This document shows, in pieces, positions 28,239 to 56,072 of a DNA stretch of 64,000 nt. The stretch covers positions 271,443 to 335,442 of the forward strand of contig JBAOHO010000013.1 of the NCBI GenBank assembly GCA_037045355.1, written 5' to 3'. The notes under the pieces are model-generated. The model had not been told where the DNA came from. It saw nothing but the letters and a program-made list of their open reading frames with translations, and did no database searches. The stretch comes from Candidatus Nanopelagicales bacterium. GTDB taxonomy: Bacteria > Actinomycetota > Actinomycetes > S36-B12 > GCA-2699445. The number at the start of each line of letters is the position of its first letter. Within the stretch, counting starts at the first letter, position 1. The translations under genes were made by a program, and so were the position numbers.

Positions 28239-28934
28239 ATGACGCGTCCAACACAGGAAGCACCGCGACCGCTGTCCGATCTGGTGCACCCGGGTTGGCT
28301 GCCCATCCTCGATCCGGTCGCCGAACGCATCGCCGCCATGGGCGACTTCCTGCGGGCCGAACTGGCCGCGGGACGCGGCTACCTGCCGGCGGGAGCCAAT
28401 GTTCTGCGCGCATTCACCCGGGACCCGGCGGAGGTCTCGGTCCTGCTGATCGGTCAGGACCCGTACCCGACTCCGGGACACGCGGTCGGGTTGTCGTTCT
28501 CGGTCGCCGCCGAGGTACGCCCACTGCCGCGCAGTCTGGTCAACATCTTCCGCGAGTACTGCTCTGATCTCGACGTCCCCTCTCCTACCACCGGGGATCT
28601 GAGCCCGTGGTTCGAGCGAGGGGTGCTGTTGCTCAACAGGGTGCTGACCGTTCGGCCGGGAGCACCTGGGTCACACCGTGGCAAGGGATGGGAGGACGTC
28701 ACGGCGGCGGCCATCAGCGGCCTGGCTGCCCGGGACACGCCACTCGTTGCGATCCTCTGGGGGCGTGATGCGCAAAGCGCCCAACGTTTCCTCGGTGAGG
28801 TTCCGGTCATCGCCTCCGCGCACCCGAGCCCCTTGTCCGCCGATCGTGGCTTCTTCGGGTCTCGTCCGTTCAGTCGGGCCAACGATCTACTGGTGACTGC
28901 AGGCGGCTCGGCTGTCGACTGGCGTCTGCCATGA
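28239..28934 (+). CDS. ung: uracil-DNA glycosylase, family 1
   Basis: [17 protein letters not shown] water-activating loop, LLLN, HPSPLS. Confidence 0.9.
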
Positions 28935-30222
28935 CCCGTAGTTTCCTCGGAACACCGGCAACCGCTCCCGGTCCGCTGGGGCCCCAGATGCTGCGGTCCA
29001 CCATGATGATCCGACGGGACCCGCTGGCGTTCCTTGCGCAGATGCGTGACGACTACGGCGATGTGGTGCAGTTCCCCATCCCGCGTCCGGCGACGTACCT
29101 GGTGGCGTCTGCGTCTGCGACCCAGCAGGTGCTCGTGGGGCGCCCTGGCGGATACGACAAGGACACCATCCAGTACCGCTCGTTATCGCTCGTCACGGGC
29201 GATGGGCTGCTCACCGCGACCAATGACCACTGGCGCGGCCAGCGGCCCGTGGTGCAGCCCGCGTTCCATCATTCCTTCCTCCCGGCGGTCGGCGAGGTCG
29301 TCGCGCAGGAGACCGGATGGCTCATCGACCGTTGGGGGGACTACCGGCCGGCGCTGTCGTCGATGTCGAGCTGGCCATGATGGATCTGGCGCTTCGGGTC
29401 GTCGGCCGGTGCCTGTTCGCCGACGATCTCCGCGGCTCGACTGCGGCGTTGGCTCACGCGACGCTGGAGGCGCTCGACGTCGTGATCAAGCGCTCCCGGG
29501 TGCCGATCGCCATCCCGGCTGCGTGGCCGACTCCGGCCAACCGACGGCTGGACCGCAGCATGCGGGCTCTCGAATCGGCCGTCGAACGCCTGATGACGCA
29601 ACGGAACCCCGAGCCAGGGAGCACGCTGCTCCTCGACTTGATCCTCAGTCAACCGGACTGGAGCAGACGGCAGATGCGCGACCAGATCGTCACGTTCCTG
29701 GTTGCCGGCCACGAGACCGCCGCCAGCGCAATGACCTGGGCCCTGTGGCTCCTCGCCCGTGACCCCGACCGACAGGTTCCTCCGTCAGGAGTGTCAGCGG
29801 CGAACTACGCCCGCGCATGTGCCGAGGAGGCCCTGCGACTGTTCCCACCGGCATGGGTCATCAGTCGCAACGCCGTGTTGGCCGATGAGATCGAGGGGAT
29901 CGAGATCCCGGCCGGGGCGCTGGTGATCACCAGCCCCTTCCTGCTGCACCGGGACAGTCGTTACTGGCCGGATCCGGATCGGTTCGACCCCGGTCGGTTC
30001 GCCGACCGACTGGCAGCAGCCCAGCGGGCGGCCTACCTGCCCTTCGGCGCGGGGCCGAGACTATGCATCGGACGCGACTTCGCCCGCTGGGAAATGACCC
30101 AGGTCATCGAGCAGTTGCTGGCTGCGTTCGAGTGGTCCGTGGTGACGCCGCAGCCGCCGATGTTGCCGTCTGTCACCTTGCGTCCAGTCGGTGGACTGCA
30201 GCTGGCGATCAGTCGTCGGTGA
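28931..30222 (+). pseudogene. cytochrome P450, interrupted by a -1 frameshift in a G6 run
   Basis: Two ORFs (28931-29380 and 29317-30222) together give a full P450: AGHETA I-helix, EEALRL, FGAGPRLCIGRDFA heme loop. The frame switches at gggggg 29334-29339. The ATGA overlap with ung is at 28931. Confidence 0.8.
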
Positions 30223-30224
30223 AC

Positions 30225-30662
30225 TCACCGTCCGACGTTGACGTACTCGACCAGAGCGTTGCGCTCCTCTTCGAGTTCGCCGAGTCGGCTCTTGACGACG
30301 TCGCCGATGCTCACGATCCCGATGATGTGTTCGTCGCTGTCCAGCACTGGGACGTGGCGTACCCGTGAGGTGGTCATGAGTCCCATGAGATCGGCGGTCG
30401 TGGCCGATGGGGGCGCGCAGGTGACGGTCGGCGTCATGATGCTGGAAACCGGCTGTTCGAGGATCGCAGCCCCACCCGTCGCGAGGTGGCGTACGACATC
30501 GCGTTCGGAGACGATGCCGACGACCGTCTGGCCGTCGTCGGACACCACCAGGGCGCCGATGTTGAACTGAGCGAGTTTCGCCAACAGTTCCGTGACGGTG
30601 GCGCTGGGTCGGACAGTCTCCACGGCATTGCCCTTTGACTGCAGGACATGTTCGAGTTTCAT
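30225..30662 (-). CDS. CBS domain pair protein
   Basis: 145 aa with two CBS-like halves (IGALVVSDDGQTVVGIVSERDV, VRHVPVLDSDEHIIGIVSIGDV). Confidence 0.85.
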   Translation of the reverse strand: MKLEHVLQSKGNAVETVRPSATVTELLAKLAQFNIGALVVSDDGQTVVGIVSERDVVRHLATGGAAILEQPVSSIMTPTVTCAPPSATTADLMGLMTTSRVRHVPVLDSDEHIIGIVSIGDVVKSRLGELEEERNALVEYVNVGR

Positions 30663-30695
30663 GGGTCCGGCCTTTCGTGGGTCGATGGGCGCAGG

Positions 30696-31493
30696 TTACT
30701 CAGTGGGGACGTCGGTGCGCAGCACCCGGAGGACTTCTTCATGCAAATGTCCGTTGGTCGTAACAGCGCAGCCCCCGGTGATGGCGTCGCCACCGTCGTA
30801 GGCGGTCATGCGGCCACCGCTCTCGGTCACGATCGGCACGAGTGCGGCCATGTCCCACGGAGCCAGAAACGGTTCCGCCGCGATGTCGACAGCCCCCTCG
30901 GCCACGAGGGCATGCGACAGGAAGTCGCCGTAGCCCCGGGTGCGCCAACACGTGTCGATCAGGGCCCGCAGACCCGGCCAGGAACCGCGCTCCCGCCAGC
31001 CCAGCTCGTCCGAATAGGAGAACGAGGCATCGCTCAACTGACTCACCGCGCTGCACGTCAGGGAGCGCACAGTGTCATCGACATCGCGGGTGTGCGCACC
31101 TGATCCGGCGGCGGCCCACCACCGTCGGCCGAGCGCCGGCGCCGAAGCGACACCGACAACAGGTTCGCCTGCCTCGACGAGCGCCAGCAGCGTGCACCAG
31201 ACAGGCACTCCGCGCAGGTAGTTCTTGGTGCCGTCGATCGGGTCGATGATCCACTGCCGCGATGTGTCGCCGGCGGATCCGAACTCCTCGCCGAGGATGC
31301 TGTCATCCGGCCGGTGGGTGCTCAGCATGGTCCGAATGGTCTGCTCGGCGCGTTGGTCGGCTTCGGTCACCGGCGACATGTCCGGCTTGGTCTCCACGTG
31401 CAGGTCGCCAGCGAGATAGCGCGACATCGTCACCTCGTCGGCAGCGTCCGCGATCCGCAGCGCGAGTGTGAGGTCGTCGTCCCATCGGTTCAC
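30696..31493 (-). CDS. hisN: inositol monophosphatase family protein, likely histidinol-phosphatase
   Basis: GTG at 31493 (VNRWDDDLTLALRIAD). Motifs: ETKPDMSPVTEAD, WIIDPIDGTKNY, WDMAA. The GTGA overlap with the upstream stop is at 31490-31493. The upstream part of the ORF-track frame is translated repeat sequence. Confidence 0.8.
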   Translation of the reverse strand: MNRWDDDLTLALRIADAADEVTMSRYLAGDLHVETKPDMSPVTEADQRAEQTIRTMLSTHRPDDSILGEEFGSAGDTSRQWIIDPIDGTKNYLRGVPVWCTLLALVEAGEPVVGVASAPALGRRWWAAAGSGAHTRDVDDTVRSLTCSAVSQLSDASFSYSDELGWRERGSWPGLRALIDTCWRTRGYGDFLSHALVAEGAVDIAAEPFLAPWDMAALVPIVTESGGRMTAYDGGDAITGGCAVTTNGHLHEEVLRVLRTDVPTE

Positions 31494-54553: not shown

Positions 54554-54628
54554 CCCTCAGGGGGCCCAGTCAACCCCCCCGGCATCCAGTCAGCGTCGCG
54601 TTGCGAACGCTCATGGCACCATTGGGCC

Positions 54629-54913
54629 GTGACCGCTGTCCCGGAAGTTGTCGAGCAGGCCGACACCGAAGTCGTGCCCGACCGACCGTGGGTGACAGTC
54701 GTGTGGAACGACCCCGTCAACCTCATGGAATACGTCACTCACGTGTTCATGTCCTACTTCGGCTATGACCGGGACAAGGCAACCGCGCTGATGCTCGATG
54801 TCCACAACGAGGGCCGGGCCGCGGTGAGCAATGGTTCGCGCGAAGAGATGGAGCGAGACGTCGAGGCCATGCATGGGTACGGACTGTGGGCCACCCTGGT
54901 CAAAGACGACTAG
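54629..54913 (+). CDS. clpS: ATP-dependent Clp protease adaptor ClpS
   Basis: [23 protein letters not shown]...[10 protein letters not shown]. Confidence 0.9.
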
Positions 54914-54994
54914 GGGCGTCAGCGAGCTCGGCGCACGAACGATGCGAGACGCGACAAACGACACGCGACAAAGAGACAGGCGCGAAAGGAAGAC

Positions 54995-55568
54995 ATGGTG
55001 TTCGGCACCCGGCGGGGATTCGTGTCCGGAAGACGCGGTCTGCAACTGAGACTGGAGGGAAACGAGGCAGCAGTGCTGGCTGAGTTGCTGACCCAGTTGG
55101 AGGCGATGGTCGAACCGGTCGAGCCCGACGGATCCCACCCCCTAGAGGAGCTTGCTGCGCACTTCGGAACCACAGCGACCGGACGACCCAGCCCTGCTCA
55201 GGCTGTTCCCCGACGGCTACCTGGACGACCCGGAGGCAGCCGGTGAGTTTCGACGCTTCACCGAGCGGGGCCTGCGAGAGCAAAAGCACGGACGGCTCAC
55301 GACTGCCACTGAACTGTTGAGCACCATCCCCAGCGGTGACCAAGTGCACGATGTTGCGGTCTCCCCCGACCAGGCGGAGGCATTCCTGGGGGTCCTCAAC
55401 GATCTACGACTGGTGTTGGGGGTACGGCTCGGGATCGTGTCCGACGACCAGGATGTGACCGAAGACTGGGCTGACGACGATCCCCGGGTCGCGACCTTCG
55501 CGGCGTACCAGTGGCTTACCTGGCTGCAGGCCAGTTTGCTCGATGTCATGGCCACAGGCAGGCGCTGA
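54995..55568 (+). pseudogene. DUF2017-family protein, +1 frameshifted
   Basis: The N-terminal part lies in ORF 54995-55246 (EAAVLAELL). The conserved DDPALLRLFPDGYLDD...YQWLTWLQ part lies in ORF 55152-55568. A join is possible at acc g gac (about 55181). Confidence 0.7.
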
Positions 55569-55985
55569 TGCTTCGTATCGATCAGGAGATCGCCGACCGG
55601 ATCATCGCCCACGCCCGAGCCGACCATCCGGACGAGGCGTGCGGAGTGGTGGCCGGCCCGGTGGGAAGTGACCGACCCGAGCGTTTCGTTCCCATGCTCA
55701 ACGCCGCCCGGTCACCCACGTTCTACGAGTTCGACTCGATGGACTTGCTGCGTCTTTACCGGGACATGGACGACCGCGGTGAGGAACCAGTGGTCATCTA
55801 CCACTCGCATACGGCCACCGAAGCCTTTCCGTCACGCACCGACATCTCCTACGCCTCGGAACCCCATGCACACTACGTCCTGGTCTCGACCCGTGAGACG
55901 GGATCGGAGGCCGGGTCCGGCGGAGTTCCGTTCGTTTCGGATCATCGACGGGAACGTCACGGAGGAGCCTGTCGAGTTCATCTGA
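55568..55985 (+). pseudogene. mec: JAMM/MPN+ metalloprotease Mec, +1 frameshifted near the 3' end
   Basis: ATG at 55568 (TGATG overlap with the upstream gene). EACG and HSHTATEAFPSRTD JAMM motifs. The conserved C-terminus EFRSFRIIDGNVTEEPVEFI is in the next frame, with the join near 55922. Confidence 0.75.
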
Positions 55986-56072
55986 CCGAAGGCCAGGGAA
56001 TCCGTCGGACCGACCCACTGTTGGAGCCGACGACAAGGAAGCGAGACGTACATGCGGTTGGCGGGCTGAGCA

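Follow-up and report, generated by a model that had tools for sequence, protein, structure and literature searches.

We analysed a 64,000-nucleotide stretch of contig JBAOHO010000013.1 (positions 271,443 to 335,442 of the forward strand; Candidatus Nanopelagicales bacterium, assembly GCA_037045355.1), hereafter the window, in which surplus bases break the frames of several conserved genes, above all that of pckG, encoding the GTP-dependent phosphoenolpyruvate (PEP) carboxykinase. Comparison with near-identical sequences from other samples makes it very probable that these extra bases arose when the consensus of a metagenome-derived genome was built or polished, and are not mutations of the organism. 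There are at least two classes of error: a tract in pckG, and scattered +1 changes that lie mostly in short base runs.

Gains and losses against near-identical relatives

The window has a G+C content of 65% and is almost certainly part of a metagenome-assembled genome (MAG) of an uncultured actinobacterium. No close genome was found among the GTDB species representatives, where a 434-amino-acid neighbour protein used as query gave no match, and the aroA-rsgA open reading frame (ORF) returned from GTDB genomes distant MAGs only, at 80% identity or less, the best of which (80%) is an uncultured Micrococcales MAG. PckG homologues carry the labels of Micrococcales, Nanopelagicales or Actinomycetes MAGs. 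Exact-protein look-ups of several window genes led us to contigs with 99-100% identity to the window from more than 12 samples, in wastewater and other metagenome assemblies (ENA, JGI, Logan, and two NCBI metagenome or MAG records). We aligned these relatives to the window in order to locate gains and losses; they span 59,551 of its 64,000 bases, the uncovered parts being 1-1847, 44041-44070 and 61429-64000. Frame plots of G+C content at third codon positions and a simple coding-score tiling were too coarse for placing breaks (a DEAD-box helicase was missed), and Pfam scans together with the alignments to relatives were used instead.

There are 24 gain events private to the window in these alignments. 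Of these, pckG has 18; aroA, the gene of a SHOCT-domain membrane protein, a DUF2017 gene and mec have one each; and two are intergenic. All 24 are missing from every relative that covers them (two to seven per site). Among the insertions and deletions (indels) in coding sequence, 22 gains across five genes stand against a single loss, in a cytochrome P450 gene. The near-exclusive +1 breaks in a few genes reported in the preliminary description hold more strongly than had been claimed. In relatives from more than 12 samples, with flanks 99-100% identical, the P450, aroA, rsgA, pckG, SHOCT, DUF2017 and mec genes are all intact. No other frame-changing indel was found in the covered bases (there are, for example, zero gaps against contig L078 over 1856-22319), and the Pfam domains of genes in the uncovered ends are complete, which agrees with the earlier statement that about 50 other genes are unbroken. 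The remaining indels are in-frame or intergenic differences in repeat number that are common to several relatives. We also considered a break in an IclR gene, whose IclR_C match covers 9-75 of 174, and dismissed it; relatives encode the same 214-amino-acid protein, with no indel.

Natural bacterial pseudogenes have an insertion to deletion ratio of 0.76-0.94 (Danneels et al., 2018, PMC6054270), against which 18 insertions out of 18 indels in pckG have a probability of about 1e-6. When genes are counted instead, five with gains and one with a loss, the sign bias alone is not significant. Protein look-ups with the broken products of the SHOCT gene, aroA-rsgA, the DUF2017 gene and the pckG N-terminus gave no record elsewhere, and the P450 loss is the one lesion reproduced in independent data. 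Programmed +1 ribosomal frameshifting, as in prfB, occurs at single sites, conserved in relatives and associated with a slippery or stop motif. The window sites resemble it in placing a +1 change inside a functional gene, but they are private to one assembly, number up to 18 per gene, and correspond to single uninterrupted ORFs in both near-identical and distant orthologues.

The pckG tract

The pckG gene (35761-37608, + strand) carries 18 private single-base insertions and about 46 substitutions relative to its closest haplotypes. We aligned it to seven haplotypes (contigs L055, L056, L059, L064/65 and L168-170), which places the insertions at 35874, 35900, 35976, 36030, 36157, 36250, 36301, 36371, 36525, 36543, 36624, 36785, 36868, 36957, 37002, 37070, 37147 and 37343, with no deletions. 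Once the 18 bases are removed, a stop-free ORF of 609 amino acids is obtained, differing from the closest haplotypes (L168-170) by 30 synonymous and 15 non-synonymous codon changes; third positions account for 29 of the 46 substitutions. These closest haplotypes have flanks nearly identical to those of the window (about 99.95% for L169 and L170). Substitutions and insertions are restricted to 35.8-37.4 kilobases, and on both sides the sequence is 99.9-100% identical to L169/L170 and to L066. Slippage-type mutation and homopolymer read error are excluded for pckG: only one of the 18 inserted bases duplicates its neighbour, where nine would be expected, and no simulation out of 5,000 gave so low a count. 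Insertions do not significantly adjoin substitutions (two observed against about 1.3 expected, judged by eye). The intact underlying ORF, the uniform sign, the near absence of duplication and the confinement to one tract all indicate that these insertions are not mutations.

The nature of the inserted bases was compared with a panel of 80 distant pckG homologues (61-81% amino-acid identity), the codons of which we mapped onto the gene; a metagenome scan with pckG had given homologues at 81% identity or less and no conspecific haplotypes among the matches listed. For 15 of the 18 insertions, the added base is the one most common among the homologues at an adjacent position where the native sequence differs. 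Random positions give a mean of 1.9 such matches and a maximum of 8 in 20,000 trials, and the same positions with a random base give a mean of 7.2 (P = 5e-5). The substitutions follow the same pattern, with the window allele being the commoner homologue state at 41 of 46 sites. From the species to the window allele, the change is from AT to GC in 30-31 cases and from GC to AT in one, whereas natural haplotype differences in the adjacent gene are balanced (15:16) and other window regions are similar; the asymmetry is seen in pckG only. At codon 179 (Ser179), where the species has AGT and the homologues TCG, the window reads TCGT, a literal fusion of both codons. In other examples native TCC becomes TC[G]C and native CCC becomes CC[G]C, the homologues having TCG and CCG, and at 36785 a Trp codon becomes TG[A]G, which would give a stop, with homologues mostly carrying A at the second codon position. 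Of the sites at which the species departs from the family consensus, about 15% have been converted, two thirds by replacement and one third by a consensus base placed beside the native one. The altered bases are thus alleles of sequences that could be recruited to this gene, with the changes confined and the flanks clean, as in a consensus artefact of a mixed population or of foreign sequence, and the tract behaves like a pooled or consensus sequence and not like a lineage.

A mixture could also have arisen within the species, by collapse of two conspecific strains, one with the native haplotype and one with a real divergent pckG allele, and with no foreign taxa involved. Such a mechanism is documented for collapsed diploid assemblies, in which nearby variants of divergent alleles misalign reads and lead to indel errors and false frameshifts (Cosentino et al., 2021, PMC8445201). 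The likeness is close, since there too frameshifts vanish after separation, variants shift the alignments and errors cluster at high variant density, but in the window the sequence mixed in behaves like a family consensus of divergent homologues and not like a second allele, the genome is a metagenome bin and the errors are +1 only. Eleven or twelve of the 18 insertions can be read as synonymous third-position alternatives, the SHOCT site described below equals a merge of two observed natural alleles, and contig L066 starts right after the variable site 37372, all of which would suit two strains. A sister allele should nevertheless have GC to AT and non-consensus changes of its own, and because these are essentially missing (41 of 46 changes are family-common, with one GC to AT against 30 AT to GC) the tract does not appear to be a real sister allele. 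In addition, TG[A]G at 36785 would be a stop in any real allele of the species, although A is the commonest base in homologues, and none of the seven sampled haplotypes carries any of the 18 inserted bases as an allele. We regard strain collapse as unlikely.

Gene-fragmenting indel errors of long-read assemblies were reportedly described by Watson and Warr in 2019. Random insertion-type read errors in a low-coverage, unpolished patch of such an assembly would be in line with the gains being private to the window and with the isolated ones being mostly +1 in short base runs; short-read assemblies of relatives fragment within pckG, and the many frameshifted PckG fragments on long ENA contigs point to such errors being common in long-read metagenome assemblies. 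As in these cases (Kastor, PMC12007338), single-base indels truncate conserved genes that are intact in close relatives. However, errors of that kind typically lie in homopolymers, often duplicate neighbours, take both signs with many deletions, and come with random substitutions, whereas the pckG insertions are non-homopolymeric, of one sign and, but for one, non-duplicating; 15 of them match the homologue consensus at adjacent sites, and the substitutions are directional (30:1, AT to GC) and synonymous-biased. This makes random read error a very unlikely source of the tract.

Recent real inactivation would turn pckG, mec and the DUF2017, SHOCT and P450 genes into pseudogenes and aroA-rsgA into a real fusion, through an insertion-prone mutation process. 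Multiple frame-breaking indels in one gene are also a mark of deletion-biased pseudogene decay (Kuo and Ochman, 2009, PMC2817411; Danneels et al., 2018, PMC6054270), but natural decay has deletions equal to or in excess of insertions, with random substitutions and stops. Since decay by 18 indels should bring many of the latter, and none of this is left in pckG after correction, the gene is unlike a decayed one and lacks the signs of relaxed selection. The inserted bases being family-consensus alleles, the intact genes of L169 and L170 and the absence of the broken products elsewhere argue in the same direction. What speaks for inactivation lies outside pckG: a P450 frameshift shared with an independent assembly, and short runs at 34076, 41888 and 55909 where slippage is possible. 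Overall, we hold it to be highly improbable.

The surroundings of pckG are themselves variable. Between 34500 and 39500 the window diverges by about 3% from L055 and L059, against about 0.1-0.2% in the flanks, and short-read contigs of relatives often end here; several haplotype combinations exist among samples, which suggests recombination among strains. Contig L066, from run SRR28161545, matches the window at 100% identity, and its start falls exactly one base beyond the private pckG substitution at 37372, suggesting read-level heterogeneity at that position in the sample. Finally, a protein database search with the window's frameshifted pckG ORF found no identical protein, just other frameshifted PckG fragments. 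More than 100 such truncated or frameshifted fragments (183-555 amino acids) were returned, on ENA contigs of up to 2.6 megabases and from other organisms, so broken pckG calls seem widespread in long-contig metagenome assemblies.

Isolated gains, the P450 loss and other loci

On the minus strand, positions 33069-35363 form a single ORF of 764 amino acids with both an EPSP_synthase and an RsgA_GTPase domain. An extra base at 34076 (GGG for GG; CCC for CC on the coding strand) falls in codon 430 of aroA, three codons short of the native stop, a TAG at 34067-34069 (- strand) that overlaps the GTG start of rsgA at 34065-34067. This gain shifts the reading of aroA into the rsgA frame and so creates the fusion. 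In seven relatives the base is absent, and aroA (430 or 431 amino acids) and rsgA (332 amino acids) are separate. The preliminary description had rightly explained the read-through by one gain; the TAA at 34085-34087 that it cited is upstream of the insertion and is not the native aroA stop. The homologue-consensus check does not extend to 34076, since few homologues reach the aroA C-terminus in the alignment. The two genes are neighbours in a little over 40 distant actinobacterial MAGs as well, mostly in different frames and sometimes in the same one, and they appear to be a conserved, tightly coupled gene pair. Upstream of aroA, a G gain at 35549 was considered as a further private gain and dismissed; it is a natural polymorphism, with G5 and a 73-amino-acid upstream ORF in the window, L169 and L170, and G4 and a 42-amino-acid ORF in L055, L056, L059 and L168.

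The gene of the SHOCT-domain membrane protein (41577-42156, - strand) has one extra base in the run 41890-41894 (T5 in place of T4 on the + strand; the site can also be given as 41888, A4 to A5), close to 41895 where it had been placed from the window alone. The gene is intact in relatives L069 and L168, with 192 amino acids. At this site the window sequence, AAAAAGAATC, contains both natural alleles, AAAAGAATC (L069) and AAAAAGATC (L168), and equals a merge of AAG (L168) and AGA (L069).

Two further gains fall in neighbouring genes, and both had been noticed within about 30 nucleotides of where the alignments put them. The DUF2017 gene (54995-55568, + strand) has an extra C at 55151, and not near 55181, in the context GAG GAG [C]TTG, which contains no base run and can be read as the Leu codons CTG and TTG together; without this C, the protein has 189 or 190 amino acids in L001, L069 and L070. 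The mec gene (55568-55985, + strand), encoding a Prok-JAB deubiquitinase-like protein, has an extra G at 55909 (GAG[G]CCG; about 55922 in the earlier account) that is missing in L001, L002, L069 and L070, where the product has 138 amino acids. The 88-nucleotide spacer that follows (55986-56072, + strand) is not a break. It had been proposed to hold a remnant of cysO and, at 56066, a possible surplus c, for which we find no support: the spacer is identical to that of L001, no relative has an indel in it, and there is no evidence of cysO. Over 55568-57020, mec is followed directly by cysM across this spacer, with no cysO gene, and every relative has the same layout, so the sulfur-carrier gene is absent from the mec-cysM locus in this lineage or is encoded elsewhere.

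The two intergenic gains are a T to TT change at 39487, just outside the amidohydrolase stop codon and missing in L055 and L168, and a 2-base gain of AG at 54559-54560, the G of which extends a G run, in the spacer between a GH18 gene and clpS, missing in L001, L069 and L070. Taken together, the +1 changes in short runs are those at 34076 (CC to CCC), 39487 (T to TT), 41888 (A4 to A5) and 55909 (G to GG). These sites and the P450 run at 29334-39 show the homopolymer or neighbour-duplicating character of read error, and the isolated gains fit either ordinary consensus errors or the same blending process as in pckG.

The P450 gene (28931-30222, + strand) was described as the sole loss, and the alignments confirm it: a G6 run at 29334-29339 stands in place of G7 in eight relatives. 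The Pfam p450 domain is split across two frames in the window, and the intact protein of relatives has 430 amino acids.

Other differences among strains concern repeats. The M20 peptidase gene ends in an in-frame tandem array of 21 nucleotides (7 amino acids) at 31499-31674, with 8.4 copies in the window; it is shorter by 42 nucleotides in L056 (protein of 495 amino acids) and by about 84 in L055 (481 amino acids), and is a coding repeat of strain-variable copy number. Intergenic tandem repeats, several with a 21-nucleotide period, were found at 2294-2371, 2441-2516, 14169-14322, 16694-16750, 35364-35460, 52976-53086 and 61389-61485, with copy number variable among strains at 35364-35384 and 52984-53057. 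The window also contains an arginine deiminase pathway cluster (44119-48517), comprising ornithine carbamoyltransferase, arginine deiminase and, on the opposite strand, a DcuC-family carrier, all intact and with very strong codon bias.

Origin of the extra bases and consequences for annotation

We propose that non-native pckG sequence entered the consensus of this highly conserved gene. It may have come from a polisher that drew on homologues, or from reads of related members of the community, which were recruited to a conserved stretch in a genome of low abundance. At the converted sites, where the foreign base outvoted the native one, it would in about two thirds of cases have replaced it, giving a substitution that is nearly always AT to GC. 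In the remaining third the foreign base would have been written beside the native one, the difference having been encoded as an insertion and the matching deletion not applied, for a +1 each time. Foreign bases written beside native ones would account for the +1-only direction, the clustering in one gene and the return of the frame after their removal. The isolated gains (34076, 39487, 41888, 54559-60, 55151 and 55909) would be separate +1 errors, mostly lengthening short runs and possibly made at the same consensus stage. The exact software step, and a common cause for the isolated gains, are what we infer.

The preliminary description had offered one technical cause, namely insertion-type consensus errors in low-coverage patches, or one biological process. 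A technical origin is favoured by the private gains, the intact relatives and the consensus alleles beside native bases, a mark that mutation would not leave, but not in the form of a single cause or of random low-coverage insertions, given at least two classes of error and a non-random pckG tract with directional AT to GC changes. A biological process finds no support and is not needed to explain the pattern. It is conceivable that the insertions are truly in the DNA, a templated process having put a donor base beside the resident one within short stretches of a conserved gene; for example, homeologous recombination that was aborted, or repair from environmental DNA of related taxa, would give a +1 burst together with consensus-directed substitutions. 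We consider this exceedingly improbable.

Several points weigh against a consensus artefact. It was deduced from the comparison of assemblies and not observed directly. We did not find a single donor with all of the foreign alleles, the best homologues agreeing with 6-7 of the 14 amino-acid states that are private. Enrichment of the converted sites for strong consensus or local conservation is weak (P about 0.01-0.02). The intergenic AG gain at 54559-60 lies outside any conserved gene and does not fit a model of cross-recruitment, and the gains at 34076, 55909 and 41888, being in short runs, could be genuine slippage mutations. Lastly, the G6 run of the P450 gene recurs in Logan contig L171, from run SRR28161545, which is 100% identical to window positions 26931-31249 and in which the truncated product is found. 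This run is probably the source of the window or contains its strain, and the P450 loss may be genuine or may come from reads that systematically miscount a G7 run.

The features of the pckG tract provide an artefact fingerprint for MAGs: a conserved gene with +1-only, non-duplicating indels, one-way AT to GC changes against conspecifics, and inserted bases that equal the adjacent consensus allele. It needs no reads and could serve in quality control by flagging genes whose consensus has been contaminated by related taxa. For the organism itself, the breaks taken at face value would have an uncultured wastewater actinobacterium annotated as lacking PEP carboxykinase, an enzyme of gluconeogenesis, as well as Mec, a P450 and two conserved proteins of unknown function, and would credit it with an AroA-RsgA fusion protein. 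These annotations of gene loss and fusion are probably false, and pckG, mec, the DUF2017 and SHOCT genes, and perhaps the P450 gene, should not be called pseudogenes, nor aroA-rsgA a fusion.

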